This document shows positions 12,259 through 52,316 of a stretch of DNA of 64,000 nt, piece by piece. Source of the DNA: a virus. The position numbers and the translations under genes were made by a program. Under the pieces are notes generated by a model. It ran no database searches and was not told the DNA's origin. It saw nothing but the letters and a program-made list of their open reading frames with translations. The number at the start of each line of letters is the position of its first letter. Positions within the stretch are counted from its first letter, which is position 1. The stretch lies in the IMG/VR virus record IMGVR_UViG_3300008050_007409; one strand, given 5' to 3'.

Positions 12259-13332
12259 TCAGCGTGCGATAGAAGTAGCCGACTTACCGCCGGGTTGCTT
12301 GATCTTGGGCTCTGCGGGGGACTTCGATCCCTCCGCCTGGGCCATCGGATGTAGGCCCGTGATCTGCTTCGGCTGTGGAACCTGAGGAGCTCCCGCCCCG
12401 GCCTGGGCAGCTCCTGGCTTCTGGACTGCTGCAGCTGCTTGGCCTGCAGCCGGGGCCTGCTGCATCTGCTGCTGCTGTGCCTCGAAGGCCTGTCCTGCAG
12501 CTTGCTCGGCCTCAGCCTGGGCGACGCCCTGCTGGTTGTCTGCCTGCCCCTGCTGGTACGCCTGGGCGTTCTCTGAGGCCTGCATAGCCTCAGGCTCGGT
12601 GAGCCAGCCTGGGTCGTTGCTGTCCGGAGCGAAGGCCCGGAGCTGGGGATCGTAGACGAAGCCAGGAGGCGGGTCCACGATCGGAACTCCGTGGGCAGTA
12701 CGGTCGTCCAGCTTCTCGACGCTGGCTCCGAGGATCTTGGCCACTGGAGATCCCTCAGGACCTTCGACGACCTCAGCCGTCTTGGTCTTCCTCTTCGCCA
12801 GGGCCTTCCTCTTCGCCAGGGCCTTCCGGCCCATGGAGTGTCCGGAGGGGAGGGCTGCCCCTGCACCTCCAGCCAGGAGGAGGAGAGCCGCACGCTGGTT
12901 GGGCCTCGGCATGGGAAGACCCCGCCTCGCAGCCTTCCGGATCCGCACGATGTCCCTGATGGAGACAGCGTTGCTTCCCACCAGAGCACCCATGCCTCCG
13001 GTGTAGAAGGCCTTGTCCTTCTGGGAGCCGGCATCCCAGCTCTCCTTGAAGGTGAGGTTGCTGGGCTTGACTCGCGCCATCTTGACGTTGCCTCGGATGT
13101 CCAAGAGGGACTCCCCCAGACCTCCGTCCGGGTTCTTCTTCGCCGCGGCGTCGAGGTCCTTGCCAAACTGGTTGGCCCCGGCCTTGATCCGCTGCCAGAG
13201 TGAGGTCGGCTTCGGGGTCACCCTACGGGGGGCCTTCACCACTCGCTTCAGGGTCAGCTTGGCGTTGGCGATCTTCTCGAGCTCTGTCCACATGGCCTGA
13301 GCCAGAGCGCGTCCTCGGAGTTCGTCGTTCAT
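12259..13332 (-). CDS. putative virion cargo protein (ELEKIA tag; hydrophobic segments; Gln/Ala-rich tail)
   Basis: AMWTELEKIA near the N-terminus. Confidence 0.65.
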   Translation of the reverse strand: MNDELRGRALAQAMWTELEKIANAKLTLKRVVKAPRRVTPKPTSLWQRIKAGANQFGKDLDAAAKKNPDGGLGESLLDIRGNVKMARVKPSNLTFKESWDAGSQKDKAFYTGGMGALVGSNAVSIRDIVRIRKAARRGLPMPRPNQRAALLLLAGGAGAALPSGHSMGRKALAKRKALAKRKTKTAEVVEGPEGSPVAKILGASVEKLDDRTAHGVPIVDPPPGFVYDPQLRAFAPDSNDPGWLTEPEAMQASENAQAYQQGQADNQQGVAQAEAEQAAGQAFEAQQQQMQQAPAAGQAAAAVQKPGAAQAGAGAPQVPQPKQITGLHPMAQAEGSKSPAEPKIKQPGGKSATSIAR

Positions 13333-14459
13333 CGCTTTCTAATCTCCGACGCCTGACGGCGCTTGTTCCGGATCGCCACCAGCCCGGCGATCGTACCGAG
13401 GCCTGCGGTGAAGGCGATGGAGCCCTTGGCGGCCTTCACCGCCCGTAGGGCGTTCCGCATCCGGACGCCGGTGTTACTGGGGAGCTTGACGTCCCCGTGA
13501 CGCTTCTCGATCTGCTGGATGATCTTGGTGATCGAGTCCTTCCCAGGCACCTGGCTGCTGGGCGTGGACGGGTACTTGAAGGGCTTGAGGTCCAGATGCT
13601 CCTGCCCGATCACATTTCGCTTGACGTGCCTACCAACCTGAGCCTGAGAGCCCTGGATGTTCAGGCCTTCCGTGGAGGACGAGCGCCTCGCCATGCGACG
13701 GACGTTCTCCTCCATCTCCCTCATGGCCGACTGCGCCAGAGCGTCCGGGGAATTCCCCGTAGCCTTGGGGATCCCCAGATGCTGGATCTTGGGGGTCGGG
13801 TTGACCACCTTGCCTCCAGGCTTCAGATGGGCCTCTATGTCTGCTGTCGACATGGCGACGGTCTTCTTGACGAGCTTCTGGTTCCTCTTGTGCAGGAACT
13901 CCTGCACGTCCTGCTGGCTCAAGATCACCCGGCCGTCTGAGTCGAGGTGGACCTTCCCCAGCATCTCGTGGACGGAGCCCTTCATCGAGGCAGGCATCGT
14001 CCAGCGAGGTCCGGTGGCCGGATCCCGGTACTGGGCGCGGACACCCTTCAGGAGCTCGTCGGGACCGCCGTGACGCAGGGCCTCGGGGGTCGAGTAGTAG
14101 TGCCGTGCCGTCTGCTCTGCGGTCTGGCGGATCTTCTTGGCGTCCTGCCCCTTCATCAGGTCCGGGTTCGCCTTGAGCGCCTTCTCCAGTGCGTTGGACA
14201 GGTACTCCCGACGCACGCCGGCCTCCATCGCCCGCTGGTCCGACGCCGCGGGGACCGCGTACATCAGAGTGGGGGCGACGGAGCCCAGGGTCAGTCCACT
14301 GATCCCGGCCTTGAGGTAGGCTCCCTTCCTCTCGGCATCCTTCAGATCCTCGCGCTGTGAGCGGAGGTTGTCTCGATGGATGCCAGAGAGGTCCAGTTCA
14401 CCGGGCCTCTTGGACCGGGCGATCTTGCAGAGCTCCTCCTGGAAGGACGCAACGACCAT
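13329..14459 (-). CDS. putative virion cargo protein (ELxKIA tag)
   Basis: SFQEELCKIA at the N-terminus; basic protein with hydrophobic segments. Confidence 0.65.
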   Translation of the reverse strand: MVVASFQEELCKIARSKRPGELDLSGIHRDNLRSQREDLKDAERKGAYLKAGISGLTLGSVAPTLMYAVPAASDQRAMEAGVRREYLSNALEKALKANPDLMKGQDAKKIRQTAEQTARHYYSTPEALRHGGPDELLKGVRAQYRDPATGPRWTMPASMKGSVHEMLGKVHLDSDGRVILSQQDVQEFLHKRNQKLVKKTVAMSTADIEAHLKPGGKVVNPTPKIQHLGIPKATGNSPDALAQSAMREMEENVRRMARRSSSTEGLNIQGSQAQVGRHVKRNVIGQEHLDLKPFKYPSTPSSQVPGKDSITKIIQQIEKRHGDVKLPSNTGVRMRNALRAVKAAKGSIAFTAGLGTIAGLVAIRNKRRQASEIRKR

Positions 14460-14462
14460 CCA

Positions 14463-17400: not shown

Positions 17401-17612
17401 GAGGGGAGGTCGTAGGCCACGGTGCCGTAGCCGTCCTGGTACGTCCCCGCGTAGGCCTCGGACTCGGGCTCGCCGTCGTCATCGAAGGCGCTGATCACGC
17501 GGAAGCAGGGCCCCACGATGAGGGGGACCAGGGTGGGGGAGGAGATCGTCGGGGAGCTGGTGACGAACTCCTGGGCGATCTCGACGCCGGGACGGCGGAT
17601 GGAGGTGCTCAT
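14463..17612 (-). CDS. contractile tail sheath protein with large inserted repeat domains
   Basis: N-terminal RPGVEI..E; C-terminal RHQLST...RELSITKAIDYVAK...DPSQVDI...YPCN.I. Confidence 0.88.
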   Translation of the reverse strand: MSTSIRRPGVEIAQEFVTSSPTISSPTLVPLIVGPCFRVISAFDDDGEPESEAYAGTYQDGYGTVAYDLPSLDDEDSLSGLTDEIRVFLLLGSDSTELNSDDDEEVLASGEDSGTYDVSAGTFTDSAGTFLQLGVEAGDVVRVTWKGDEIDLVVATDAASDTELTLTAGDIDEDLTGVDYEVVRNPAQFVFDAEAQADYRFGDLDDYLVVSARATDDDNDAADYAGSAGDDLTIVIAETEEISSGTSTGYVGDTIFDAASATFETGVGATGAPSTDHFIFIDGEGLGSAYRQILYVVSETRALIETGEGTVASKDWVYGVEVETGSAGAYDHTGGSHEKVFTDAAATWAAPGAGYGSAPDTNTWIEIEGNGVYAVATVESATEVTLDAATNPGGDVASGSWTAITEVETGSGDGGTAANTVFVDPTATFSTDGVTASTHIMDIGDGDDYNLVDVVTSETELALTDSMTGAAALSYEVVATTSALAITWDEDDEEVTITLPRTTGVSTVSYEAIYDAITDDEDDAYNSTVSAFLTASLGGVTGDGSTTFTDDDVDSYALDGGADDDQLILDADLIGSSTPVGKIYVSYRALRLDVSAGAEEPTLLEYESTSDMQDALGDSTTDNPLSLGMYFALLNAPSQAVSGIGVGEISATKPDGTLDGYQEALEFLEGQEVYVMVPLTQDPSVHQIFQTHVDSMSESDNKAERILLFNQAFPAYATATTVASGTSGNTEEVVGEEEGSFTTSVNLTDAEVEAGDYLVVSALATSDESPDAVNGTQALYGVEIVGVDSGDDFALEIDFTDRTEEDDGQDFSWDTDDWDDLVDVTWTVYRAGSAISAKSDQRDAVAEIGEGFEDRRCFHIWPSKVVADVDGSSSVLEGFYLACAVAGWIGEKNPSQGMTNSTVSGFTGLKYSNSYFSASQLDRIAGGGQMIFIQESQNAALKCRHQLSTDTSTVQYRELSITKAIDYVAKFFRDALSSQIGKFNITQSFMDALSVQIQGLGRYLVATKVLNDFDVVSIKVNADDPSQVDIVCLLDVLYPCNTIYMTLQV

Positions 17613-17618
17613 GTGGGA

Positions 17619-18398
17619 TCACTCCGAAGCTGTGGCTATCCAGGTGCTGACAATAACACCTTCCGAGGATGGATCGGGATCCCCATCCTCGTCGATGGCG
17701 TCAGGGTAGAGGAGATCTCCATCGAAGTCCCGGAAGACCGTGTTGGCGATGACCTTGAGGGCTGAGAGGGTCTCGGCGTTGGGATACTCGTAGGTCCAGG
17801 ACTCTTCGTAGTACACCGGGAAGCTGACCGCGACGGCGATGAAGTCCTCATCGGAATCGCCGGGCATGAGGGTGTGGGCCGGGGACTCCTCACCGATCCG
17901 GATCCGCAAGCCGATGTTGAAGAAGCCCGCCTGCTGCAGCGGAACCCTGTAGATCCGAATGGCCTTGGCGACGAGGAGTGCGAGCTTCTCGGCCTCCTCA
18001 CCGATCCGGCTGACACAGTGCACCGTGAACGACCCGCTGAGGAGGTCCGTCCTGGTTTCCTTGCCGGTGTCGAACTCCAGGTGCTGCAGCGAGTCAAGCG
18101 AAGTGTCTCCGTACCCGAAGGGGCCTCTCGAAATCATGATCGCGGGGCGCTTTTCCACGGTATCGGTATTGATCGCTCCGGCGACGCCAATGATCAGCTC
18201 GGTCTCGAGCTCCGACGTCTGCCCCGTCTCCTCCCCCGGCTCGTAGTGGAACAGATTTTCCCCGCTTGGCATCCCGTAGAAGAAGTCCTGCAGGAACCTC
18301 AGCAGGATGTCCTTCGTGTCGCTGAGCCAGTTCCCCGTCCTTGGGTTGTACGTCTGGATCAGCTCGTCGAACTCGGTCTGTCCGGATCGCAGAGCCAT
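17619..18398 (-). CDS. putative tail terminator/completion protein
   Basis: Position just upstream of the sheath; EKRPAIMISRG motif; acidic. Confidence 0.55.
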   Translation of the reverse strand: MALRSGQTEFDELIQTYNPRTGNWLSDTKDILLRFLQDFFYGMPSGENLFHYEPGEETGQTSELETELIIGVAGAINTDTVEKRPAIMISRGPFGYGDTSLDSLQHLEFDTGKETRTDLLSGSFTVHCVSRIGEEAEKLALLVAKAIRIYRVPLQQAGFFNIGLRIRIGEESPAHTLMPGDSDEDFIAVAVSFPVYYEESWTYEYPNAETLSALKVIANTVFRDFDGDLLYPDAIDEDGDPDPSSEGVIVSTWIATASE

Positions 18399-18993
18399 GA
18401 TGGGTGTACCTGTTCATCTGGGAGGTCAGACCGGACGTTAGCCCAGCAGCGAGGAGGGAGGCGAACAGCTTCGTCCGACTCGAGGCGGGGCCGGCCTTTC
18501 CCGTGATGGCCTTCCTGATCTTCGGGGCCAGGTAGCGTGCTCCGACGTAGCCGCCAGCGCCGCCAGCCAGTCCAGCTCCGGCCGCAGCTGCGTACCTCTG
18601 AGCCTTGGTGGCCTTCCTCTTCCGAGCCCCTGCGATCTTCTCCAGCTCCTCCCAGAAGGCAGCGGCGGACGCCACCGACACGGAGCTGGTCTTGATCTTC
18701 TGGACGCCGTGAGCTGCAGCGCCGCCACCGAACACGCCGTAGATGGCCAGAGCTCTTCGGCTCTTCTTCCTGGAGTCGGAGCTGGCCTTGACCATCTTGG
18801 AGCCCGCAGTGGCACCCAGGACGCCCCCCAGACCCCCTACAGCCCACTCACCAGCTGAAGCCAGGGCAGGGGTCTTCACGCCACGCGCCAGGTGCTTGCC
18901 GAGGCCGCCACCGATGGCACCTCCAGCGATCAAGCCAGCAGAGGTGGCCAGGAACCTCCTCCTCTTCTGCTTCTTGAGCTGCTCCCGGGTCAT
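18094..18993 (-). CDS. putative virion cargo protein with glycine-zipper segments
   Basis: AFWEELEKIA internal tag; several GxxxG hydrophobic stretches; the 3' 305 nt overlap the next gene. Confidence 0.6.
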   Translation of the reverse strand: MTREQLKKQKRRRFLATSAGLIAGGAIGGGLGKHLARGVKTPALASAGEWAVGGLGGVLGATAGSKMVKASSDSRKKSRRALAIYGVFGGGAAAHGVQKIKTSSVSVASAAAFWEELEKIAGARKRKATKAQRYAAAAGAGLAGGAGGYVGARYLAPKIRKAITGKAGPASSRTKLFASLLAAGLTSGLTSQMNRYTHHGSAIRTDRVRRADPDVQPKDGELAQRHEGHPAEVPAGLLLRDAKRGKSVPLRAGGGDGADVGARDRADHWRRRSDQYRYRGKAPRDHDFERPLRVRRHFA

Positions 18994-19913: not shown

Positions 19914-19935
19914 GGATCACCTCCGGTTGGGTGAT

Positions 19936-20970
19936 CTACTTCTTGGACTTGGTCCGACTCGCTGCGGACTGGGCCTGGGCCATGCGAGCCCGAAGCTGAT
20001 GGATCGTGTGCCGCTGTCCGGCCTGGAAGCCTCGACGGGCCCCGGCCATGTAGCCGGCACGCATGCCCTCCTGCTGTCCGGTCCTCCGGCCCTTCTTGTG
20101 ACCGGTGTAGGTGCCTCCGGCCGTGCCGACGACTCCGAGGCCGCCCATGGCTGCCAGAGCGCCTCGACCCGCCTGGGCTCTGGCGATCTTCTCGATCTCC
20201 TCCAGTTCGGAGAAGAAGGCGTCGACGGTGTGCTGTGGAAGGGACATGGTGTGATCCTCGGAGGTCTTGATCTTCGGCTTGGCGTTGTTCCCGAAGTCCT
20301 TCTTGAGCCTCCGGTAGGCGAGGGTGGCTACCCCTCCAAGAGCCAGTCCGCCGCCGAGAGCGCCCAGAGTCTTGCTGCTGACCAGATTTGCTGCAGCTGT
20401 CTTGCTGAAGCCCATCTGTTCCAGGCGCCAGCCTGCCAGATCGGCGTCGAGTTCAGCACGCTTGATGCTGATCTGATCGTCCTTCCGCCAGCGCTCGCTG
20501 TCGGCCATGCTGCGCTTGCGGCGGTCGATCTCTCGTCGGGCGTCGTCGACCTCGAGGGCCATCGCCGTCTTGTAGAAGGGGGAGCCCTTGAAGTAGTCGG
20601 ACCACTCCTTGAACGACCGGTAGCGGCACTCGGCCAGCTTCTCGGCGAAGGCGCTCTTCTCCTTCCCCTCCTGGCTGTGCGTCCAGTCGGTGAGGCTCTG
20701 CTCGAGCGAGGCGATCTTCGTCTCGAACTTGGCGTCCTCCAGGCGCTCCTCTGCCCTACGGACACGTAGGGCAGCGTCCTGAGTCCGGTCGCCAGCTGCA
20801 GACACCTCGAGGGCCTTCGCCTTCTTGAGGAAGGGAGTGCCCTCGAACTTCTTCAGCCAGTGATCTTCACCGGCGGTGGACGGGATGGCCTCACTGCACA
20901 CGCCCAGAGGACGTGACCAGATCCGGGCGGTCTTCTCCAGCCCAGAGACCTTGAGGTAGGCGTCCAGCAC
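19936..20970 (-). CDS. putative virion cargo protein (KxA motifs, internal repeat)
   Basis: LEKTA, FSKTAA, AFFSELEEIEKIA; repeated F.G.PF.K.A.ALEV unit. Confidence 0.65.
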   Translation of the reverse strand: MLDAYLKVSGLEKTARIWSRPLGVCSEAIPSTAGEDHWLKKFEGTPFLKKAKALEVSAAGDRTQDAALRVRRAEERLEDAKFETKIASLEQSLTDWTHSQEGKEKSAFAEKLAECRYRSFKEWSDYFKGSPFYKTAMALEVDDARREIDRRKRSMADSERWRKDDQISIKRAELDADLAGWRLEQMGFSKTAAANLVSSKTLGALGGGLALGGVATLAYRRLKKDFGNNAKPKIKTSEDHTMSLPQHTVDAFFSELEEIEKIARAQAGRGALAAMGGLGVVGTAGGTYTGHKKGRRTGQQEGMRAGYMAGARRGFQAGQRHTIHQLRARMAQAQSAASRTKSKK

Positions 20971-20979
20971 GGGCGCCTC

Positions 20980-21366
20980 CTACAGCTGGATGCCGCGCCG
21001 AGCGAGCTCCGCCTGGATCGCCTGCTTGGCCGCAGCCCGCTGGTCGATCTCGGTCGCGCCGTCCACGTTGGCGAAGAACGCCTCCAGGGCACTCGGATCG
21101 CCTTCGGCGGCAGCCTTCTCCATCTCGGAGAACTCGGCCTGGGCGACGTGTCGTCCTGCGGCGTCGAAGTCGATGAGGGAGCCCAGGACATTCTCGTGCG
21201 CGGCAGCGGTCTTCTGGAGATCGCCGTCGTCGTCGGAGACGATCATGAGGGCCAGGTCGCTGAGCGTGTCCGGCAGATCGTCGGAGGTCACGCCTTCGGG
21301 CAGCTCGGCGGCGACCTTCTCCAGGCCCCCGTGCGTGCTGTAGATGTTGGCGAGGAGCACGTTCAT
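20980..21366 (-). CDS. small acidic head/scaffold-type protein (KxA motifs)
   Basis: LEKVAA, LQKTAA, FSEMEKAA. Confidence 0.7.
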   Translation of the reverse strand: MNVLLANIYSTHGGLEKVAAELPEGVTSDDLPDTLSDLALMIVSDDDGDLQKTAAAHENVLGSLIDFDAAGRHVAQAEFSEMEKAAAEGDPSALEAFFANVDGATEIDQRAAAKQAIQAELARRGIQL

Positions 21367-21404
21367 GTGATCAGATCCTCAAGAGGTGGTTGGTGGGACC
21401 AGCC

Positions 21405-21431
21405 TGAGGGACGCCCTTGCGGACATCCCTC
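21405..21431 (-). terminator. stem-loop after the 21440 gene (GCAA tetraloop)
   Basis: GAGGGATGTCC-GCAA-GGGCGTCCCTC on the - strand; no U tract, so it may be a stability hairpin. Confidence 0.45.
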
Positions 21432-21439
21432 AAGTCAGA

Positions 21440-22192
21440 TCAGCCGTTGCGGCGGGCGAGGTGCATGCCGCCGGCGCCGAGGGCGGTGCCTCCGAGACCC
21501 ATGAGCGCGAGCTTGCCGCGGGTGCTGCCGGCGCCCTTGCGAGCGAGAGCGGCCCACTTCTTCGGCTGGCCCTTGTACTGGCGGAACTTCTCACCGCGCT
21601 TGAAGGCGGCCTGGGCCTTGCGGGAGGCGTCGGCGTCCATGCCCCTCAGGCCCGTGCCCTTCTGCTTGCCCTTGCGGCCCTTGCGGTACTCGATCTGCTG
21701 GGCCTTCTGCTTCTTGGACATCTGGCGGAGGGGCTTCCACGAGCCATCGGGCATCTGGGAGGCGACCTTCTCGACGTCCTCGATGAGCTCGTACTCACCC
21801 GACTCGATGAGCTCCATCATGGTCTCGCCGTCGATGTCGTCCAGGTCGATGAAGTCGGGGCCGGCGGTCTTGTTCAGCTCGTCGTTGTAGGCGTGGGCCA
21901 TGATCCGACCGGCCATGTCCCAGTACTCGGCGGAGCCGTCGGAGGCCATCTTGCTGAGGACCTCACCACCGTCGTCGACCTCGTCCATGAGCTCCAGGAG
22001 CTCGGTACCGGTCAGCTGGGTCAGATCGATCTCGTCGTCACCGGCCTCCTTGTCCATGCCGTCCAGCACGATCTGCCCCGACTCGATGCCGGCGAGGAGA
22101 TCGGCACCGCTGATGGTGTCGAGGTCGATGGTGTTGTCGGACGCGGTCTTGTCGAAGCCGCGGCCGTAGATCTGAGCGAGGACGGGGTTCAT
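21440..22192 (-). CDS. head/scaffold-type protein with acidic repeats and basic C-terminus
   Basis: Repeated IDLD.I.G..L..L units separated by DKTAS, DKEAG, SKMAS, NKTAG, EKVAS. Confidence 0.7.
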   Translation of the reverse strand: MNPVLAQIYGRGFDKTASDNTIDLDTISGADLLAGIESGQIVLDGMDKEAGDDEIDLTQLTGTELLELMDEVDDGGEVLSKMASDGSAEYWDMAGRIMAHAYNDELNKTAGPDFIDLDDIDGETMMELIESGEYELIEDVEKVASQMPDGSWKPLRQMSKKQKAQQIEYRKGRKGKQKGTGLRGMDADASRKAQAAFKRGEKFRQYKGQPKKWAALARKGAGSTRGKLALMGLGGTALGAGGMHLARRNG

Positions 22193-22242
22193 GGTGTCAC
22201 TCCAGGAAGGTGTCAAGAGGGTAGCGAGGTGGTCCGATCACG

Positions 22243-22719: not shown

Positions 22720-22723
22720 GGGA

Positions 22724-23517: not shown

Positions 23518-23533
23518 GGAGGACCTCCGAGGA

Positions 23534-24583: not shown

Positions 24584-24638
24584 GATGGGGTCCGTCTCCA
24601 GGAAGTCGGTAGAAGCTGAGGTGAGGGGGAGACCCCGA

Positions 24639-25169: not shown

Positions 25170-25547
25170 CTACACGTGATCCGAGGTGAGAAGGAAGTTG
25201 GTGAAGCGGCCTTCGGCGGTGTCGCCGTCCCCCAGCTCGGTCTCGGAAGCGGACTTGACCAGTTCGCTGCCCAGAGGGACGCCGGCGCCGTTGTTGCGGG
25301 CCACGAAGTCCTCGACCATCGCCAGGTCCTTGTCGCCGGAGGCGAGCTCGGTGGCGTAGGCCTCGGCGTTGTCCTCGGACATGATGCCACGGTCGACCGC
25401 GATGCTCGCGATCTTCTCCGCATGGGAGTGACGGTCCTTGTCGGCCAGCTGACGCTTGAGCTCCGCGTTCTCGGTCTCGAGAGACCGGATCACGTGGGCG
25501 CTCTTGATCATCAGATGGTTCAGATCAGCGGCTGCGATCTTCTGCAT
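25170..25547 (-). CDS. putative scaffolding protein
   Basis: Coiled coil; QKIAA, EKIAS, VKSAS motifs. Confidence 0.6.
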   Translation of the reverse strand: MQKIAAADLNHLMIKSAHVIRSLETENAELKRQLADKDRHSHAEKIASIAVDRGIMSEDNAEAYATELASGDKDLAMVEDFVARNNGAGVPLGSELVKSASETELGDGDTAEGRFTNFLLTSDHV

Positions 25548-25549
25548 GA

Positions 25550-26161
25550 TCAGACTCCCTGCTCAGCCCGCTTCTTGGCCAGGGCAGCGCGGAGGCGCTC
25601 CTTGTCCGAAGCGGTCTTGACGTTGATGTTCTTGTCGCCCTTGCCGGAGGCACCGGTCAGGTTCTCCTTCAGCTTCTTGTCGGCGAAGGGCTCCGCGTCG
25701 AAGAGCGCCGACAGATCGGCGTTGACCTGCTTGGCCTTCTCCTTCTTGTCGAAGCCGATCGCAGCCTGGGAGCTGGCGAGAGCGGGGTGGTGCGTCTGGC
25801 CGTCGCCGCGGGGCTTGGGCTGTTCGCCCCCGCCACCGGGCTTGTCGCCAGCGTTGTTGGAGGGATCCTTCCCTCCGTCAACCATCGGAGGAGCTCCCTT
25901 GTGGGGCTTCTGCGTGGACTGCTTGTGATCCGCGTGGCGCACACCGTGGTTGGTGCCGGGGGGCGGAGCGGCGCCTGCACCCTTGACCATGTTCTCGACG
26001 CCGCGGCGACCGATGAACTCGAGGGTGGTGGCGATCTTCTCGGCCTCGGTGACCGTCGACGTGGAGCGCCGTGTGGAGGCGACCTTCACCTGGGTGGGAT
26101 CACCCGAGGGGGCGTCGTCCCCATAGACGGCCTTCTGGATCATTTGATCGATCGTCGGCAT
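25550..26161 (-). CDS. head/scaffold-type protein (KxA motifs)
   Basis: VKVAS, EKIAT, VKTAS; low complexity. Confidence 0.65.
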   Translation of the reverse strand: MPTIDQMIQKAVYGDDAPSGDPTQVKVASTRRSTSTVTEAEKIATTLEFIGRRGVENMVKGAGAAPPPGTNHGVRHADHKQSTQKPHKGAPPMVDGGKDPSNNAGDKPGGGGEQPKPRGDGQTHHPALASSQAAIGFDKKEKAKQVNADLSALFDAEPFADKKLKENLTGASGKGDKNINVKTASDKERLRAALAKKRAEQGV

Positions 26162-26177
26162 GGTGCAGGTCTCCAGA

Positions 26178-26564
26178 TCAGCTGAGGCAGGAGGAGCAGA
26201 TGGAGGCGCCCTGGACGTCCAGGGGGTTCTCCTTGCAGACCCGGCAGTTGCCGTTGATCATGGCGATCTTGATCTGCCCGAGCTCGTGGAAGGCGGCGTG
26301 AGCCATGACCTGGCCACCGAGGGCGTCGAACGCGGCCTTCTCCATCTCGACATCACCGACGCCTTCGTCGACCTCGATGCCGTGATCCTGGGCGAGCTTG
26401 GTGAGCTCCTCCAGGGAGAGCTCGTCGAAGGGGTTCTCGTCGACACCCTCCTGACCCTCGTTGAGTGCGTCGAAGAGTCGGGCTTCCGCCGTCTTCTCGA
26501 TGGCCGCCTCGTCACCCGAGGCCTCGTTGTAGATGTTGTCCAGAAGGGAGGAGATCTGCTGCAT
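26178..26564 (-). CDS. small acidic head protein with C-terminal zinc finger
   Basis: EKTAE, EKAAF; CRVC...CSSC. Confidence 0.65.
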   Translation of the reverse strand: MQQISSLLDNIYNEASGDEAAIEKTAEARLFDALNEGQEGVDENPFDELSLEELTKLAQDHGIEVDEGVGDVEMEKAAFDALGGQVMAHAAFHELGQIKIAMINGNCRVCKENPLDVQGASICSSCLS

Positions 26565-26572
26565 GATGTCCT

Positions 26573-28219
26573 TCAGGATCCGAGGAGGAGGGATGCTGGG
26601 GAATGGCGGGGCAGTCCGAAGACTGTGTCCCAGGGATCCGAGCATACGGTATCGCGGAACGCTCCGCAAAGGTAACCCGTCGTGAGCTTTCGCTCGTCAG
26701 GAACCAGATCCGTGATGGCCGCTGTCTTGGTCATTGCTCGGTCGAGGAGATCCCCGAAGAAGTTCTGCTGGTAGTACCCGAAGTGCTCTTGCACTGCAAC
26801 GTCAAGGGCTTTCGGAAGCCCCAGCAGGGAGTCTCGATAGGCCGTGTAGGCCTCTCCGAGCTTGTCCATCAGCTCGTTGTCCTGCACCACCACCTCGGTG
26901 CGCGGCGTCGTCTGGCTCGCGCTCTTGATCATGGTGATGCGGATGATCCGGTGTCCGACATGGGGATGGAAAGCTGATCTCCCTCCGATGTGCGGGGAGA
27001 TCTTCCTGGCCAGATCAGCGTCGAAGTCTCCTGCGGACAGGCCGACTGGGCACGACGCCTCTCGTTGGGGGAAGACCATACCACGATCATGCAGTCGGTC
27101 GGCGAGCTCGGGCCGCTTGCGGCAGAGGGCCGAGTACTGGAACTCGCGGGGCTTGAGGATGATCCCCAACAGGGCCAGCGTGGTGAGCAGGCCCTGGAGA
27201 TCACCTGCCTTCAGGATCTCCTTGGGTAGATCCTCCTCACGGTCCGCGACACGGCGGGCCAGCGAGTAGCCCGCGTTCGGCAGCACCTTCTTGTCGATCT
27301 CGGCGCTCTTGTCCTTCGCCCGCTTGATCAGGACCCTCTTGCTGGCAGTCTTGATCAACTGATTCGGCTCATCCAGGCTGTACTGGGGAGCGGTCTTCCG
27401 GTCGTGGGAGAGGTAGAGGAATTGGGGTGTCCTCTGAGCCACCTTCATCAGGACGCCCGACTCCTTCGCAGCCGGGACGATGACGTCGCTCAGATCGAAG
27501 AAGTTGGGGAAGAAGTTGACGGCGCCGACGATGCGGCCGTCGTTCCGGATCTTCCCCATCTCGGTGCGCAGGTGGTCGCAGTAGTCGCGCTGGGTCCGGG
27601 AGATGTGCCCGCAGATGGTGCACACGTCGAACTTGACCCGACACCCCATGCTGATCTGACGAGGCTTCCCGTTGTCCAGGTCCTCGATGATCTCGTCGGC
27701 TCCGACCTGCTTGGCCTTCTCCCGATCGTGCCTGGCGACCACCTCGACGCGGTGCATCTTGGAGTTCCACACAGCGAGGACCACGTCGCCGTAGGCGATG
27801 CTCGGGTCCTTGTTGATGTGGTGCCGGTAGCGGAGGGCCTCCTCGAAGGTCCGGTAGCCGAACTTGCTCCAGTCGCCGGGAGGTAGCGACTTGCCGTGGG
27901 GCTGGAGCCACTTCCGCTCGAGCTCCAGGGCGACCTTGGCGTGGTCGGACCTGATGGTGTGGTCGTAGGCGAGGCTGATCTCCGGGAAGACGTCGCCGTT
28001 GACGTTCATCCCCCAGTACTCGAACGACCCCATCGGAGTCATCAGCACGAACTGGTAGTTCGGATCCGGCTTGAGGTTCCGCAGGTAGCGAGACACCTGG
28101 GGGTGCATCTCCCCGGCGATCTTCGCCAGGCCTCCCCCACCTCGAGGAGTCACGTCGACCGTCTCGGCAAACCAGTTGCCGTCTCGATCGTGCGTGTTGA
28201 AGGTGATGCGCTTCTTCAT
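26573..28219 (-). CDS. prohead (capsid maturation) protease
   Basis: NVNGDVFP, HHINKDP (His), ISMGC..FDVCTICG (Ser), YCDHL, FFDLS.V.VPA. Confidence 0.8.
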   Translation of the reverse strand: MKKRITFNTHDRDGNWFAETVDVTPRGGGGLAKIAGEMHPQVSRYLRNLKPDPNYQFVLMTPMGSFEYWGMNVNGDVFPEISLAYDHTIRSDHAKVALELERKWLQPHGKSLPPGDWSKFGYRTFEEALRYRHHINKDPSIAYGDVVLAVWNSKMHRVEVVARHDREKAKQVGADEIIEDLDNGKPRQISMGCRVKFDVCTICGHISRTQRDYCDHLRTEMGKIRNDGRIVGAVNFFPNFFDLSDVIVPAAKESGVLMKVAQRTPQFLYLSHDRKTAPQYSLDEPNQLIKTASKRVLIKRAKDKSAEIDKKVLPNAGYSLARRVADREEDLPKEILKAGDLQGLLTTLALLGIILKPREFQYSALCRKRPELADRLHDRGMVFPQREASCPVGLSAGDFDADLARKISPHIGGRSAFHPHVGHRIIRITMIKSASQTTPRTEVVVQDNELMDKLGEAYTAYRDSLLGLPKALDVAVQEHFGYYQQNFFGDLLDRAMTKTAAITDLVPDERKLTTGYLCGAFRDTVCSDPWDTVFGLPRHSPASLLLGS

Positions 28220-34743: not shown

Positions 34744-35593
34744 CGATGACCTTCTCCTCTTCCGCTTCCTGGGCAAGAAGATCTTCGTAGGAGGGGATCC
34801 TGCGAGTCTTCTTCCGCTTCCGCATCCGGAACGCCGAGAGTTCCTTCTTGATCGTATCAGCAAGGCCGGCACTGCGCATGTCCCGACGCTGCTGGATGGC
34901 GTCATCGGCCACTCGAGCCAGGGCGGCGATTCCCATGATGTGGGTGCCGCTGAGCTTCGTTCCCTCCGCCCGGGCGATCTGCACCTGCTCATTGGCCAGG
35001 GCGATCACGTTGTCGTAGAACTCCTCGTCCTCGATCCGGTGTCGCAGTCCCAGGATGCCGTAGGTGGCTGCCATGTCGCCCGAGTAGGCGATCAGCTGGG
35101 TCTGGTTCTCGTCTTGCACCTGGAGGAAGGCGAAGATCCCAGACTGGCTCATCTCGGCCAGGTTCCAGAAGAAGTGGGCGTAGAACTCCAAGGCCTTCAA
35201 GCTGGGGACACGGAGCTCCCCGTACTTCAGGACCATCTGATCCCGAGCCTTGGACACGTTCCACTCCAGGAGGAGCAGGTGCTCGAGGTCGGGGCGCGGT
35301 CCGGCCTCGCCGGTAGAGGCGTAGAGGAAGTCGATGGCCTTGGTGGTCTCCGGCCCCTGCTTCCAGAGGTCCAGGATCTTCCGGTCCCTGAGCCACCGGT
35401 ACAGCCGAGTGTTCGTGGGGGTCAGGTCTGCACGCCAGTACGAGGGGATGCCTCCCAGCTCACGTCGGAGCTGGTTGAGATCTGACTCCTTAGGCTGCAC
35501 CAGCGACTTCGACTGGCAGACGCTCATGATCTCTGGATCAGTGAGCTGTCGGGAGAGGAGGTAGAGCAGGTACCGGCGGTGCGGGTACTCCAC
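34712..35593 (-). CDS. hypothetical helical protein (terminase small subunit candidate)
   Basis: Located upstream of terL; helical with basic C-terminus; function inferred from position only. Confidence 0.45.
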   Translation of the reverse strand: MEYPHRRYLLYLLSRQLTDPEIMSVCQSKSLVQPKESDLNQLRRELGGIPSYWRADLTPTNTRLYRWLRDRKILDLWKQGPETTKAIDFLYASTGEAGPRPDLEHLLLLEWNVSKARDQMVLKYGELRVPSLKALEFYAHFFWNLAEMSQSGIFAFLQVQDENQTQLIAYSGDMAATYGILGLRHRIEDEEFYDNVIALANEQVQIARAEGTKLSGTHIMGIAALARVADDAIQQRRDMRSAGLADTIKKELSAFRMRKRKKTRRIPSYEDLLAQEAEEEKVIDVTAKLVERG

Positions 35594-36138
35594 TACTTCC
35601 GCCAGGGCGCTCGGACACGGTGGTCGATGGGGATGCCCTCACCCCCTTCCCGCAAGGACTTCTTGATCCCGCGACCGGCCCCACGGCCGATGTTCTCGGA
35701 CTCGTTCGTGATCTCGTGCACCAGCTTCTTGGTGTGCTGGTCCATGGCCTCGCTCAGCTCCCTGCGGGCGTTCTTCACCACCTTCTGGGAGCTGTTCTCG
35801 AACTGATCCCCGAGAGGCTTGGCGGCCTCCCTCGCTGAGTCGATCACCCAGGCGCGAGCCCGTCCCGCCAGGTGAGGGAGGGTGGCCCCTACGGACCCGC
35901 CAAGAGCGGTGGTGCTGATGCCTCGAAGGACTCGGAAATCCCTACGGTCCTTCCACTCCTTCGAGGAGATCAACCCCTGGCGGAGTCGGTCGTCGTCCTT
36001 CCACTGGTCGTTGATGGCCCCCTCGAAGCCTCTCTTCGCACCCAGGGCTGCACCCATGCCGGACGTGATCGCGACGGTAGGGATCTTGTACTTGGCCACC
36101 TTCTCCATCTCGGAGGCGAAGGCATGGAGCTTGGACAT
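35593..36138 (-). CDS. putative virion cargo protein (EMEKVA tag)
   Basis: MSKLHAFASEMEKVA; Gly-rich hydrophobic segments. Confidence 0.65.
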   Translation of the reverse strand: MSKLHAFASEMEKVAKYKIPTVAITSGMGAALGAKRGFEGAINDQWKDDDRLRQGLISSKEWKDRRDFRVLRGISTTALGGSVGATLPHLAGRARAWVIDSAREAAKPLGDQFENSSQKVVKNARRELSEAMDQHTKKLVHEITNESENIGRGAGRGIKKSLREGGEGIPIDHRVRAPWRK

Positions 36139-36148: not shown

Positions 36149-38149
36149 CTACTGGATCTTGCGCCGAATCTCCATGAGACCTCCGATCACATCGCTGAGG
36201 CTCTTCATGGCACGACAGGCCGCGGACTCACGTACCTCGTCCAACCCCATGCGGCTGGCGACGACGATCTCGGCGAGCTTGTTGGCGGTCTTCTCGAACT
36301 CCGGGAGGGCTTCGATGAAGGCCGAGACGTTCTCGGGGGTGATGAAGTTCAAGGAGAGGACAGCGTCCAGGTTCTCCCGGTCGATCACCACGGACGCCTG
36401 CTTGTAGAGCAGGTGCGCCTTGGGCATGCACAGCAGAGCGACCTCACGCACCAGGTCGTGGCGGAGGTGGTCCGTGTTCCTGACCACGGCGGCAGCCTGC
36501 TTGATCATCGCCGCAGTCGCCAGCTCCTCGGACACCACCCGGCGGGTGCCAGGGATCTTGAGAGGGCTGGAGGCCGCGGCCGACTTCTCCAGGACGGTGG
36601 GGATCTGACCGCCAGGGACTCCCAGAGCTCCCAGGGCGAAGCCTGCCTCCTCCACGCTCATGACCCGGTCGTAGCCGGCGAGCTCGGCGTTGCGGCCGCG
36701 CAGGCTGTAGGACGTGCCGTCCGAGACCACCTCGACGGCGTTGATGTCCATCGCCACCTTCTCCGCCTGGAGCTGGTTGATGAGCTCGGGGTTGTCCTGG
36801 ACACTGATCTGCTTCCCACGCAGCGGGAGGAAGACCATCGATCCGGGGATGGCGTACTTGCCGGGGCCGAGGCTGGCGATCTTCTTCAGGCTGGGGGAGG
36901 GCATCAGCTCGATGGACTCCCCGGTGCTGACTCGGACGGCCAGGTAGCTGGCGACCTTCTCGGCGCCCTCGCCAGTCGTGACCCGGTTGGTGATCTTGAC
37001 CGGCTCGGTGGCGATGCCCTGAGCTCCGGCCTGGTAGACGAAGACACCCAGGCCGGAGGGGGTGCAGGCTGGGAGGGTGAAGTCCTTGACGTGTACGCCG
37101 GCCAGCTTCTGGAGGGCGTGGCACTCCTTCCCGGAGAAGACCGCGTGGTCCAGCATGTCGCCGTCGAAGGTCAGGGTGCGGGGTACGACGATGCCCAGGA
37201 TCTCCCTGGTTCCGGAGAGGGCCTGGTAGACGCCGACGGTCGACGCATCCTGAGCCCGCTTCTCCATCCGAGGACCGTCCGTGGTCGAGTCCAGGGTCAA
37301 GACCAGGCTGCCCTTCTCGCGGAGCGTCGCCATCTTCTCCATGCCCAGCAGCTGCTGGACCTCGACGACGTTCCGGCGCTCCTCGACGACTCGGAAGCAG
37401 CGGGAGTTGGCGTGCTTGACCAGGTAGCCAGCCCCATCCTCTGTGATCTGGATCACGTTCGGAGGGGTGTTGACCCGTCGCTGGACTCGGATGTCGCCGG
37501 CGGTCTTCTCCTTCCCACCGCCCACGGCGAGGAGAGCGGCCTTCAGTGCGGGAGTGCCCTCGAAGATGGTGCGGAGTCCCTTGGACGATCCGACCTTCAC
37601 GAAGAGCGCCTTGCGGTCCTCCTCTCGGATGGTGTGCGCCACCTTCTCGAGGACGGAGCTGGTCTTGAAGAAGCCGCCGGAGCCACCGGATCGGCCGGAG
37701 CTCGTGGGGGGTCCGATCTGGTTGCCGATCCCTCCGCCGAGGACGTCGCCCTTCTTGGCCGGCGTGCCGAAGACGTCCGGTTGGAACAGCACTCGCTCGA
37801 CGGCCTCCTTGGTCATGGGCTGGAGCTGGCCGTCGTGCGAGAACACGTCGAAGGGGGACAGGTTCTTCTCCCGCACGATGATGGGGAAGACGACCAGGCT
37901 CTTCTGCTTGATCGCTGCGTCCTTCTCCATGCCCATCGGGTAGACCAGCAGCTTGCCGATCCCGTAGCCGCGGCTCCCGTCCACGCGCTCCAGCTCCGCG
38001 TCCATCTCGAAGGACTTGAGGAAGGGCATGTCCTTGTAGGCGGCGGAGATGATCTCAGGAGCCCAGTCCGTGGGCTCCTTCTGGAGCCGGGTGTCCAGGG
38101 CCACCTTCTCGATCCCCACGGAGGTGTCGACAGTCAGGCTGATGTGCAT
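36149..38149 (-). CDS. large head-associated protein with many KxA motifs
   Basis: More than ten K-x-A motifs (EKVAL, EKVAH, EKTAG, EKMAT, EKVAS, KKIAS, EKVAM, EKSAA...). Confidence 0.7.
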   Translation of the reverse strand: MHISLTVDTSVGIEKVALDTRLQKEPTDWAPEIISAAYKDMPFLKSFEMDAELERVDGSRGYGIGKLLVYPMGMEKDAAIKQKSLVVFPIIVREKNLSPFDVFSHDGQLQPMTKEAVERVLFQPDVFGTPAKKGDVLGGGIGNQIGPPTSSGRSGGSGGFFKTSSVLEKVAHTIREEDRKALFVKVGSSKGLRTIFEGTPALKAALLAVGGGKEKTAGDIRVQRRVNTPPNVIQITEDGAGYLVKHANSRCFRVVEERRNVVEVQQLLGMEKMATLREKGSLVLTLDSTTDGPRMEKRAQDASTVGVYQALSGTREILGIVVPRTLTFDGDMLDHAVFSGKECHALQKLAGVHVKDFTLPACTPSGLGVFVYQAGAQGIATEPVKITNRVTTGEGAEKVASYLAVRVSTGESIELMPSPSLKKIASLGPGKYAIPGSMVFLPLRGKQISVQDNPELINQLQAEKVAMDINAVEVVSDGTSYSLRGRNAELAGYDRVMSVEEAGFALGALGVPGGQIPTVLEKSAAASSPLKIPGTRRVVSEELATAAMIKQAAAVVRNTDHLRHDLVREVALLCMPKAHLLYKQASVVIDRENLDAVLSLNFITPENVSAFIEALPEFEKTANKLAEIVVASRMGLDEVRESAACRAMKSLSDVIGGLMEIRRKIQ

Positions 38150-47996: not shown

Positions 47997-48066
47997 GTTG
48001 ATCCAGAGAAGAGGGTGCCGTCATTCTGGCATAAGAGCCATGAAAGTAACCTGGAGGAAGAAGCCT

Positions 48067-48198
48067 ATGGGCAAGGACAAGGACCCCCGCGAGGAGTCCA
48101 AGAAGCGTTTCGGCAAGCTCAACGACCGGATCACCAAGAACCTGTACCCCGACAAGGACGACAGGGACAAGGACGACAAGGACAAGGGCGGCCGATGA
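48067..48198 (+). CDS. small charged protein
   Basis: GGAGG RBS; CATAAG promoter motif at 48030; typical codons. Confidence 0.6.
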   Translation: MGKDKDPREESKKRFGKLNDRITKNLYPDKDDRDKDDKDKGGR

Positions 48199-48257
48199 TC
48201 TACTGCTTCATGTGGGGCGTCGCCGTCGGCGTCGCTTTCGGCATCGCCGACAGCTGA
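48195..48257 (+). CDS. 20-aa hydrophobic peptide
   Basis: ATGA coupling; MIYCFMWGVAVGVAFGIADS. Confidence 0.4.
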   Translation: MIYCFMWGVAVGVAFGIADS

Positions 48258-50177: not shown

Positions 50178-50183
50178 GAACGT

Positions 50184-50981
50184 CTACCCCTGCACCCTAC
50201 GGGCTGTGATCTTGGTGGAGGGTGTCTTCTTGGACTTGCCTCGGATCTTCTTCTTCTGATCCTGCATCTTCTTGATGGCGTAGACGCTCCCCGCGGGGAT
50301 GGCAGCGTAGGTGCCGAAGGCGAGTCCGGTGCGGCCCAGGTACTTGGGGATGCGCTTCATCCCGGCCTTCCGGGCAACCATGCGAGCTCCTCGAGCTGTC
50401 GCCCGAGCCTCCTCTGCCACCATTGGCGCCTGACTGGCTGCGGAGATCCCGGTGATCGCCTGCCCCTCTCGGATCGCCTTGAGACGCTCCTCCTTGGACA
50501 TGTTCCCCTTGTCGCGGGTAGCTCTGTGGATCCCCACACCAGTCCCGAGTAGGGAGGGGATCATCATCAGCTTGCTCGCCTGGTAGGCGCGGGTGTTGTG
50601 CATGACCTTGTTCCCCGTCGCGTGCCCAGCTTCATGGGCCAGGGCGTCGAGGCTCATGTTCTTGGGGCCGATGACGGAGTTGGGCTTCAGTCCCATCCGC
50701 TTGAGCTGTTCGGCCTGGGAAGTGGTCAGGTTCTTCCGCTTCGTGATGTAGGCCGGAGAGCCGTACTCGCCGCGCTCTACGCCCTTGGCCTTCAGCTTGG
50801 CCTCGATGGCGTCGATGGCCTTCTGGTCCTTCTCGGTGGACCTTCCCAGAGCTTTCAGGGCTGCCACGCCGACGCCCGTCTGTCCGAGGAGGGACAGGAG
50901 GGGGATCTTCGCTGGATGGCTCAGAGAATCGTCAGCGGCGATCTTGGCCAGCTCCAGACCGAAGTAGTCCAGAACGTCCAT
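50184..50981 (-). CDS. tagged putative zinc metallopeptidase
   Basis: FGLELAKIA tag; LAHEAGHA and downstream EEARA. Confidence 0.65.
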   Translation of the reverse strand: MDVLDYFGLELAKIAADDSLSHPAKIPLLSLLGQTGVGVAALKALGRSTEKDQKAIDAIEAKLKAKGVERGEYGSPAYITKRKNLTTSQAEQLKRMGLKPNSVIGPKNMSLDALAHEAGHATGNKVMHNTRAYQASKLMMIPSLLGTGVGIHRATRDKGNMSKEERLKAIREGQAITGISAASQAPMVAEEARATARGARMVARKAGMKRIPKYLGRTGLAFGTYAAIPAGSVYAIKKMQDQKKKIRGKSKKTPSTKITARRVQG

Positions 50982-50983
50982 GA

Positions 50984-51376
50984 TCAGTAGCCCCCACCCG
51001 ACTTCTTCTTCTTCTTCTTCTCGGAGCCACCGCGAGCCTGGGCCAGCTCCAGCTTGTGTCGAGCCTCTATGATCTTCTGCTTCTGGGTCTTGTTCTTGCC
51101 GTGAGCCAGGTAGGCGCCGGCGGCGCCGCCGACGCCCGCACCCACGAAACTCAGCGGGTTGATACGCCCGCCTCCGACCGCGGTACCGAGGTAGCCGCCG
51201 GCGATCTGACCTCCCAAGGCACCACCCCAGGAGCGGGCCCTCTTGCCCTTCTCAGCACCGACAGGGGCTCCGAGGGCAAGGATGCCGGGGATGGCACCGC
51301 CGACGGCTGCGCCTTCGCGAGAGCCGGCGATCTTGGTGAGTTCATCGTTGAACGCGAGGAAGAGTCGAGGGTTCAC
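50984..51376 (-). CDS. tagged glycine-zipper protein
   Basis: AFNDELTKIA followed by GxxxG hydrophobic segments. Confidence 0.65.
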   Translation of the reverse strand: MNPRLFLAFNDELTKIAGSREGAAVGGAIPGILALGAPVGAEKGKRARSWGGALGGQIAGGYLGTAVGGGRINPLSFVGAGVGGAAGAYLAHGKNKTQKQKIIEARHKLELAQARGGSEKKKKKKSGGGY

Positions 51377-52023
51377 AGCTGGAGCTCCTTGATCTGCTGA
51401 TCGATGAGGCGATTGTAGCCTGCCAGCGTCTCTCGGACACTGATCACGTTGTTGACCTGGACGTCGACGAAGTCCTGGGGATCTTGAATCATTCCGCTGG
51501 ACCTGTCCAGCCGAGCTCGCACAGCATCGTGGTCTCGGACGATCCGCCGACCACGATCATACTCATCCAGCTCGTGTTGGAGGATGTCAAGGGGCTCCTC
51601 CAGGAACCATGTAGCATCCTCCAGGCAGCAGGACAGGGCGTAGCCCGTGACCTCGCCTGAGAACTCGTGCTCCTTGATCAGGGCAGCGGTGGTCAGGATG
51701 ACTGCGATGCTCTCCGCCTCCAGAGGCTGGAAGTGCGAGAAGACTGGGATCTCCCCCACCAGAGCCAGGCCACAGTTCTCGAAGATCTCCATGTGGAGCC
51801 AGAAGCCGTCGTGCCCCGCCATGATCCTGGCAGCCTGGATGCGTTCCCAGGTCAGCGGTCCGGGATCTCCCCACCGCTCGCCCAGCTCCAAGCGCAAAGC
51901 GACCGAGTCCCAGGCGAGGAACTCAGGTCCGAGCTCCCTCAGCAGGAACTTCAGCAGCGGGTAGAGGTGCAGTCCGCGCTCGTCGTCGAGCAGCCGCACC
52001 CGCCTGGCGACGGCTTGGGTCAT
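51373..52023 (-). CDS. hypothetical virion-module protein
   Basis: ATGA-coupled ORF. Confidence 0.65.
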   Translation of the reverse strand: MTQAVARRVRLLDDERGLHLYPLLKFLLRELGPEFLAWDSVALRLELGERWGDPGPLTWERIQAARIMAGHDGFWLHMEIFENCGLALVGEIPVFSHFQPLEAESIAVILTTAALIKEHEFSGEVTGYALSCCLEDATWFLEEPLDILQHELDEYDRGRRIVRDHDAVRARLDRSSGMIQDPQDFVDVQVNNVISVRETLAGYNRLIDQQIKELQL

Positions 52024-52316
52024 GTGTTCAAGAGTCCCTGTAGACGGCGGTCCTCCATGGACTTGTACCTGTCGGTGATCTTCTTGGAAGCCCCCATGTT
52101 GCGAGACCTGACGGAGTGCCAAGAAGCTCGGTCGAGTGCCTGGGCAGCTGGCTTCACGTTGGGCTTCACTCCAGCCCCGCCGTGGGCGCGGGCCATGGAC
52201 CGCCAGCTCATGGACTCGTGAGGCCGTACCGACTTCAAGAACGACTTCGCCCTGGCGTTCATCGTCCCGATCTTCTCGAGCTCGTCAGAGAAGGCGTGCA
52301 TCAGAAGCGGGTTCAT
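52020..52316 (-). CDS. small tagged basic protein
   Basis: AFSDELEKIG at the N-terminus. Confidence 0.65.
   Translation of the reverse strand: MNPLLMHAFSDELEKIGTMNARAKSFLKSVRPHESMSWRSMARAHGGAGVKPNVKPAAQALDRASWHSVRSRNMGASKKITDRYKSMEDRRLQGLLNT

Follow-up and report, generated by a model that had tools for sequence, protein, structure and literature searches.

Our analysis of a 64,000-nucleotide stretch of viral DNA, IMG/VR record IMGVR_UViG_3300008050_007409 (hereafter the window), points to a head-maturation system in which the phage's prohead protease recognises and cuts the peptide motif hydrophobic-x-K-[ITV]-A and a longer form of the motif, at the start of small basic proteins, is a capsid-targeting propeptide like that of phage T4; we give this reading a probability of about 0.62. 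The window has a GC content of 64%, and its minus strand encodes the virion module of a myophage between 12.2 and 53.5 kb. An initial annotation had noticed ten copies of a short tag on otherwise dissimilar proteins of this module and had read it as an address that docks cargo into the prohead and is then removed. Part of that interpretation stands: the leader is modular, it is restricted to the virion module, tags and head-protein sites share the K-[ITV]-A end, and the window encodes a protease of the gp21/assemblin fold. Docking and removal themselves we treat below as a model.

Ten long tags in the virion module

All ten tag peptides are present in the minus-strand open reading frames to which the initial annotation had assigned them (aa, amino acids; pI, isoelectric point):

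13267-13296, minus strand: AMWTELEKIA, leader of 12259..13332, a 357-aa basic protein, pI 10.1
14418-14447, minus strand: SFQEELCKIA, in the leader MVVA-SFQEELCKIA of 13329..14459, a 376-aa basic protein, pI 10.4
18631-18660, minus strand: AFWEELEKIA, internal, residues 112-121 of 18094..18993, a basic glycine-zipper protein
20182-20220, minus strand: AFFSELEEIEKIA, internal, residues 251-263 of the 19936 gene
21109-21138, minus strand: AEFSEMEKAA, internal, residues 77-86 of the 20980 gene
21863-21892, minus strand: AYNDELNKTA, internal, residues 109-118 of the 21440-22216 gene
36094-36123, minus strand: AFASEMEKVA, in the leader MSKLH-AFASEMEKVA of 35593..36138, a 181-aa basic protein, pI 10.3
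50937-50966, minus strand: YFGLELAKIA, in the leader MDVLD-YFGLELAKIA of 50184..50981, a 265-aa basic protein
51326-51355, minus strand: AFNDELTKIA, in the leader VNPRLFL-AFNDELTKIA of 50984..51376, a 130-aa basic protein, pI 10.6
52266-52295, minus strand: AFSDELEKIG, in the leader MNPLLMH-AFSDELEKIG of 52020..52316, a 98-aa basic protein whose downstream part has pI 11.7

The tag had been described as often lying within the first 20 residues, and six of the ten do lie inside the first 22 (genes 12259, 13329, 35593, 50184, 50984 and 52020), where they end at residues 14-22 and share the consensus M-x(4-7)-[AS]-F-x-x-E-[LM]-x-K-[IV]-A; the other four are internal. The extended pattern occurs nine times in minus-strand frames and never in plus-strand frames, and seven times in automatically called genes against a shuffle mean of 0.03. 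In nine of the ten cases the segment after the tag is basic (pI 9.9-12), often with glycine zippers, and the 50984..51376 protein is itself a glycine-zipper protein with eight GxxxGxxxG patterns. The tripeptide NPL is found 10 times against 1.6 expected, and NP[LVR] stands near the start (MNPLL/VNPRL/MNPVL) of the 52020, 50984, 21440 and 20980 genes; because of this over-representation, the part of the leader before Ala-Phe appears to be partly conserved as well.

For comparison we used relatives of the major capsid protein, of which there are 231 in IMG/VR, many on contigs of 175-198 kb at 51-75% identity; the only matches in cultured phages are Salmonella phage Arash (35%) and Vibrio phages D69, D181 and D148 (31%). 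Two environmental relatives recur below: G001, a 110.7-kb contig with 70% capsid-protein identity and CheckV completeness of ~65%, and G004, 195,580 bp with terminal repeats and 51% capsid-protein identity. The locus upstream of the portal holds three tagged genes in the window versus one in G001. One of the tagged frames, 18094-18993, has no stop before a run of ~300 nt into the neighbouring gene 17619-18398 (minus strand), and since third-position GC content (GC3) falls from ~0.8 to ~0.4 exactly where this overlap begins, its last ~100 codons are non-coding read-through (lost stop, frameshift or assembly error). The tag lies inside the coding-like part, about the first 200 codons, and in G001 the syntenic tagged gene is present, the counterparts of 18094-18993 and 17619-18398 being separate genes.

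The core motif is enriched in head proteins

The shorter core of the tag is about three times as numerous as the long form, and it is not equally common in non-structural proteins, the alternative that the initial annotation had posed against itself: minus-strand proteins contain 33 copies of [LMF]xK[IVTAM]A, versus 3.15±1.72 in shuffles, and plus-strand proteins contain one, versus 1.18. The shuffles and the plus-strand control rule out chance or composition as the source of the motif, and a GC artefact is ruled out by an enrichment that persists from 44% to 67% GC. A pattern-free k-mer count over the virion proteome likewise placed KTA, EKV, KIA and KVA, along with the tetrapeptides EKVA and EKIA, at the top of the over-represented words; AFNDELTKIAGSRE and GGLEKVAAELP are examples of motif-bearing peptides. 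The Ala of the core is invariant, and a small residue, with Ser or Ala favoured, is preferred after it.

The distribution of strict core sites was read against the following genes:

14463-17612, minus strand: sheath, 1049 aa
23534..24583, minus strand: major capsid protein, 349 aa, phrog_2522 match
31786-33513, minus strand: large terminase (TerL)
40246-41814, minus strand: baseplate hub
41814-47996, minus strand: RNA polymerase, a single β-β' chain of 2060 aa with domains Rpb2_3 and Rpb2_6 (β) and Rpb1_1 to Rpb1_5 (β')
48258-50177, minus strand: portal, 28% identity over 541 aa to Arash gp204

Sheath, RNA polymerase, portal, TerL and hub have no strict site, nor do genes 17619-18398, 18990-19913 and 38159-39415, and there are three to four each in 26573-28219, 29304-30164, 36149-38149 and 52319-53503. 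The proposal that the motif is missing from tail, terminase and replication proteins thus holds within the window (sheath, TerL and hub at zero), and sequence evidence bears out the restriction of the tag to the virion module.

A modular leader on unrelated basic proteins

A DNA pattern for AFx[DE]ELxKIAA, estimated to match less than once by chance (about 38 bits), found 47 tags on 46 stretches in IMG/VR, mostly large contigs and several of them already known as capsid-protein relatives. In most of these tags a start codon lies exactly seven codons upstream of Ala-Phe, so that the long form reads M-x6-A-F-x-[DE]-E-L-x-K-I-A-A; as read from sequence, F, L, I and A fall on one side of a helix (spacing i, i+4, i+7, i+8). 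The proteins downstream form 32 clusters that show no BLAST relation at E<1e-3, and in 30 of the 32 the pI is above 9.4. The tag on proteins with no other similarity is accordingly modular, conserved and mostly N-terminal, as had been proposed. A short leader, a small basic body and rapid turnover are, by analogy, the signature of the internal proteins of T4. A double-glycine bacteriocin leader (LSxxELxxIxGG), which the EL..I spacing had suggested, was dropped, as the tags have no terminal GG.

In the largest tagged IMG/VR cluster (L128, L131, L132, L138, L143, L150), the leader is directly followed by a conserved G-[KR]-x-x-R-R-P-[IML]-x-V-x-x-L-L-[RQ]-K.

Glycine-zipper, transmembrane-like segments and basic tails occur in many of the tagged proteins, and three genes in a row at 75-77 kb in G004, a long way from the head module, begin with the leader. 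These proteins could thus be diverged paralogues of small membrane proteins (lysis, exclusion or similar) with no role in the capsid, their common N-terminus an inherited amphipathic anchor and its likeness to head-protein sites a coincidence. We give this very little credence: across the clade, even where capsid-protein identity falls to 31-35%, the core is ~10-fold enriched specifically in head proteins and the protease, it also forms the end of the tags, and BLAST relates none of the 32 clusters to another. Nor is a location outside the head module peculiar, the IP and alt genes of T4 being scattered in the genome as well.

A more serious alternative, which we nevertheless consider unlikely, is that the motif is a processing site and nothing else. 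The leader would then be a removable propeptide that, for example, prevents membrane-active glycine-zipper proteins from acting before they have entered the head, and the basic bodies would drive packaging through affinity for DNA or scaffold. The cargo bodies do share basic charge and glycine zippers that could drive co-packaging by themselves, the core alone accounts for most sites, and the RNA polymerase of Arash is apparently in the virion without a tag. Against this, some 10 leader positions that precede the core (A-F-x-[DE]-E-L) are conserved in 32 unrelated clusters and their spacing from the start codon is constant, which is more conservation than cleavage would demand. In T4, moreover, the capsid targeting sequence (CTS) is a 10-19-residue leader on the basic internal proteins IPI, IPII, IPIII and Alt that is removed by the prohead protease gp21, and its equivalent residues 4 and 7 are targeting determinants (PMC9026906).

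A gp21-fold protease that bears the motif

The candidate processing enzyme, a predicted serine protease, is encoded in the same module, and the motif recurs along its chain:

26573..28219, minus strand: prohead protease with a C-terminal helical scaffold-like domain, 548 aa (from model and orthologue alignment)
28115-28129, minus strand: protease motif site, residues 31-35
27437-27451, minus strand: protease motif site, residues 257-261
27344-27358, minus strand: protease motif site, residues 288-292
26720-26734, minus strand: protease motif site, residues 496-500

In the AF2 model of this protein (mean predicted local distance difference test score, pLDDT, 76), the catalytic domain spans residues 49-262, residues 265-315 form a disordered linker, and residues 315-548 make up a helical domain at the C-terminus. 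Residues 49-248 align with T4 gp21 (5jbl_A; Z 8.9, root-mean-square deviation 2.6 Å, 130 residues aligned) and the model with herpesvirus assemblins (Z 5-7.5), at Foldseek probabilities of 0.75-0.93; there is also a weak match to phrog_18299, a head maturation protease. The protease, its profile and the 666-aa protein described below were each compared with PDB sequences, and nothing meaningful came up. H133, H134 and S190 are invariant among 34 orthologues, and the His-Ser spacing of 56-57 residues resembles that of the catalytic pair of T4 gp21, which we take to be His85 and Ser140.

Among the same 34 orthologues, the motif provides the only conserved positions within variable, low-pLDDT linkers. 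The first of four such islands, [FL]-E-K-[ITV]-A at residues ~31-35, lies ahead of the fold; the second, GADKTAKVMxKIA, stands where the catalytic domain ends; the third, EKTAS, is within the linker; and the fourth, L-x-K-[LI]-A, lies ~50 residues before the C-terminus, inside the low-pLDDT stretch 492-506. By analogy, gp21 and the assemblins process themselves at positions of this kind, the latter at their R and M sites, and the predicted domain order is the layout of a protease-scaffold precursor.

One of the tagged proteins, 50184-50981, carries HEAGH (HExxH) and was considered as the processing enzyme. It was rejected: it is tagged itself and its homologue was found in G001 only, with none in G004 or Arash. 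We prefer the gp21-fold protease because it is universal in the clade and bears the motif itself. The homologous-protein search for the HExxH protein gave only two matches; the Atlas structure search lists a PF04298 Zn_peptidase_2 cluster at TM 0.50, a lead only, and otherwise viral hypotheticals. The G001 homologue (611 aa, 29% identity) is placed elsewhere in that genome and keeps the N-terminal tag, and the protein may be a packaged metallopeptidase, that is, a Zn-peptidase-like cargo.

Large in-frame insertions are seen in some relatives, in which the protease gene encodes 937-1339 aa versus the usual ~570 (L015, L025, L028, L042, L067, L076) and portal homologues have open frames of 1136 and 1953 aa versus ~640 (G003:65406-68399 and G005:114575-120394); these are possibly inteins.

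Capsid protein and multi-site head proteins

The N-terminal 26 residues of the capsid protein end in EKVA (24506-24517) and are a candidate propeptide; the pattern ...LNELF..K....EGKEK[IVLM]A is kept there in nearly all of about 60 distinct relatives. Further head-module proteins carry several core sites each:

19936..22216, minus strand: three adjacent multi-site proteins of 344, 128 and 258 aa, with nine strict sites and 10-11 core sites in total across the three
25170..26669, minus strand: three small genes between protease and capsid gene (125, 203 and 163 aa), with core sites AEKIA, IEKTA and MEKAA
29304..30164, minus strand: acidic head-module protein, 286 aa, with 3-4 core sites (three in the G001 orthologue)
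36149..38149, minus strand: 666-aa protein, with four strict and up to nine loose core sites
52319..53503, minus strand: acidic protein, 394 aa, first gene of the operon, with four strict and up to seven loose core sites

The three proteins at 19936..22216 are putative scaffold/core-like or polyprotein substrates; in two of them the tag precedes a basic C-terminal module, and the internal tag of 21440-22216 is conserved in its G004 counterpart (AMGRIMAHSFVAELNKIAE). Sites recur in other orthologues as well, three in that of 26178-26669 in G001 and two each in those of 52319-53503 in G001 and G004. The 666-aa protein has an N-terminal F-E-K-T-A in which K15 and A17 are invariant, and 5-6 sites per orthologue in the five further ones scanned. 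Its model is poor (pLDDT 61, predicted TM-score 0.31), with residues 1-18 and 124-172 below pLDDT 50 and only part of the sites in disordered regions, and at this model quality no fold match was found. With net charges of -8 to -18, the multi-site proteins encoded near the capsid gene are acidic and, by analogy, look like core or scaffold substrates for degradation, not cargo, as with gp22 of T4, a core/scaffold protein that gets degraded (PMC9026906).

Distribution across the clade

All long capsid-gene loci examined (48-67% GC) show an enrichment of the core motif on their coding strand. Counted over whole genomes, G004 has 35 core sites against 12.9±3.4 expected and G001 has 27 against 6.7±2.5. 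In Arash (180.8 kb), 17 core sites fall within 7 kb, in gp218-gp225 just upstream of the capsid gene, a stretch that includes gp222, the protease homologue; in Vibrio phage D69, the same head genes have 2-7 sites each versus one in ~2,900 residues of downstream tail proteins. Because the core clusters in the head genes of both Arash and D69, the K-[ITV]-A code appears from these sequences to be old and clade-wide.

The motif-rich Arash proteins gp220, gp222, gp223 and gp225 were detected in virions purified on sucrose gradients (PMC10585845), and the high sequence coverage reported for such proteins, like the location of some sites in predicted helices, would suit a motif that is never cut. 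K-[ITV]-A with its hydrophobic anchor would then bind a head component (scaffold, capsid protein or portal) and stay on the mature proteins. We think this improbable, since the motif is conserved in disordered linkers flanking a gp21/assemblin-type catalytic domain and again ~50 residues from the C-terminus, positions typical of self-processing, since a small residue is preferred after the Ala, and since the acidic multi-site proteins adjoining the capsid gene look like degradable core proteins.

The RNA polymerase homologues of Arash, gp206 and gp216, rank at or near the top by spectral count in the virion mass spectrometry, and the RNA polymerase gene of the window lies inside the virion module, adjoining the portal; its product is probably a virion RNA polymerase.

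Proposed mechanism

From the enrichment, placement and conservation of the motif and from the predicted fold of the protease, we infer cleavage, targeting and ejection as follows; leader and head-protein sites are tied together in this scheme because both end in K-[ITV]-A. The core, hydrophobic-x-K-[I/T/V]-A, in most cases with a small residue next in the chain, would be the site of the protease, which would trim itself at its N-terminus, in the linker that follows the catalytic domain and ~50 residues before its C-terminus, cut the N-terminus of the capsid protein, and probably cut the acidic multi-site head proteins into pieces, as happens to gp22 in T4. The long form, M-x(~6)-A-F-x-[D/E]-E-L-x-K-I-A-[A/G], would be an amphipathic helix at the N-terminus of small, very basic, often glycine-zipper proteins and would hold this cargo on the assembly core of the prohead. 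Once the protease had removed the leader, the freed internal proteins would remain with the DNA and would probably enter the host by ejection. By analogy with the assemblins, we lean slightly towards a scissile bond after the Ala (P1 Ala with a small P1'); a cut after the Lys, making the site hydrophobic-x-charged in the T4 register, could be the alternative.

Several observations weigh against this scheme. The long leader is evident in environmental members and not in Arash. The mass spectrometry of Arash was tryptic, listed an implausibly broad 116 proteins and contained no N-termini (PMC10585845), so that this proteome cannot show cleavage. Some core sites lie in predicted helices or strands, not loops (site 257 of the protease; sites 270, 462 and 618 of the 666-aa protein), and the N-terminal and internal logos from unselected loci differ only modestly. 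The tagged genes at 12259-14459 adjoin tail genes, and the conserved N-terminus of the capsid protein could be structural. The RNA polymerase carries no K-[ITV]-A tag and, given that it is probably a virion protein, the tag is not the only route into the particle and no universal address. For this phage, K-[ITV]-A processing and packaging are proposed on the strength of sequence and a predicted fold.

Comparison with known systems

The T4 CTS, which Mullaney and Black reportedly described in 1996, is the closest counterpart, and the analogy drawn by the initial annotation fits down to the basic cargo. In both systems, small basic proteins that are otherwise unrelated begin with a short leader (10-19 aa in T4, ~17-18 aa here); the motif at the end of that leader recurs in scaffold and capsid protein and at the sites, candidate ones here, where the protease processes itself; and they share the protease fold and cargo genes that vary among relatives, as at the T4 IP loci. 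They differ in the motif, h-x-K-[ITV]-A (h, hydrophobic) here versus (L/I)-x-E in T4, in the leader, AFxDELxKIA versus MKTYQEFIAE, in the ~290-residue linker plus C-terminal helical domain that is absent from crystallised T4 gp21, and in lineage, which here is Arash-like (~180-195 kb, 349-aa capsid protein) and not T4-like by sequence. The system is thus an analogue of T4 with a homologous protease and not a member of the T4 sequence family; the principle of a leader joined to a protease site has been established since T4, and what differs here is the cleavage code.

Herpesvirus assemblins (UL26-type) share the protease fold and the single-chain layout of protease, linker and scaffold-like C-terminal region, with candidate sites here just after the catalytic domain and near the C-terminus. 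Their consensus is (V/L/I)-x-A↓S, and the invariant Ala followed by a small residue resembles its P1 Ala and P1' Ser, with the cut position here inferred. The position three before the Ala of the assemblin site is hydrophobic, whereas here it would be the Lys, and this phage would have many more substrates; we know of no leader-tagged cargo class in herpesviruses.

Encapsulin cargo peptides, also invoked by the initial annotation, are a weak parallel. They too are short peptides that address cargo to the interior of an HK97-fold shell, but they are typically C-terminal and never removed, and they work without a protease in a portal-less shell that is not a virus; here, the tags stand at the N-terminus or inside the chain, and the phage is a tailed one that encodes portal, terminase and sheath.

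In phiKZ and SPN3US, head propeptides are cut by gp175 and gp245, respectively, at (S/A/G)-x-E or A-x-E (PMC10052503, PMC5694885). Common to these phages and ours are a large myovirus, N-terminal propeptides (candidate ones in ours) on numerous proteins that lie inside the head or are ejected, with more than one copy of the motif in some, and, in relatives, a virion RNA polymerase. In contrast, the enriched words here are KTA, KIA, KVA and EKVA, with no x-E motifs, phiKZ-type propeptides are long and have no common leader, and the capsid protein and genome type are unrelated. The N-terminal ~30 residues of P1 DarB suffice to load a protein into the head (PMC9024508); the Dar proteins differ in having no consensus and a signal that is not linked to a protease motif. 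Literature searches for a K-x-A prohead-protease motif found no description.

Other features of the window

The plus-strand blocks hold replication and DNA-modification genes, among them SF1, SF2 and DnaB-type helicases, UDG and DpdA. The DpdA-like protein, at 6252-7088 on the plus strand (PF23859, E 4.6e-15), suggests by its sequence a 7-deazaguanine modification of the phage DNA. Close annotated relatives are lacking: megablast of 24 kb of the window against phages gave nothing, a Pfam and PHROGs scan of 20 virion proteins gave almost no matches, and a related-locus search with the portal as query gave no relatives.

Implications for the clade

We tentatively suggest a wider reading, which we consider somewhat less probable than an even chance. 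A clade of ~180-195 kb myophages, mostly uncultured and comprising at least 231 IMG/VR contigs as well as Arash and Vibrio phages D69, D181 and D148, would use a general capsid label in which a gp21-fold protease has switched to K-[ITV]-A↓small, a portable 17-18-residue leader makes any gene an injected cargo, and leader-plus-module units are strung into polyproteins. Cargo in this clade would range from basic DNA-coating proteins and membrane-active glycine-zipper proteins to enzymes such as the Zn-peptidase-like protein. The leader would be a second, independent and engineerable delivery tag beside the T4 CTS, and the specificity of the protease would provide a link to herpesvirus proteases; a P1-Ala specificity, if true, bears on the divergence of gp21-type and assemblin-type proteases.

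If the proposed roles of core and leader are correct, they supply the code for cleavage and the label for loading in a large clade that has hardly been studied and that includes cultured phages (Arash and the D69-like Vibrio phages), mature virion proteins and injected cargo become predictable from sequence alone, and the leader is a candidate tag for packaging foreign proteins into phages of the clade. The T4 strategy of a leader, a protease motif and fast-evolving basic internal proteins would then exist outside T4-like phages with a different code, supporting the idea that leaders are a general way for large phages to renew their injected arsenal.

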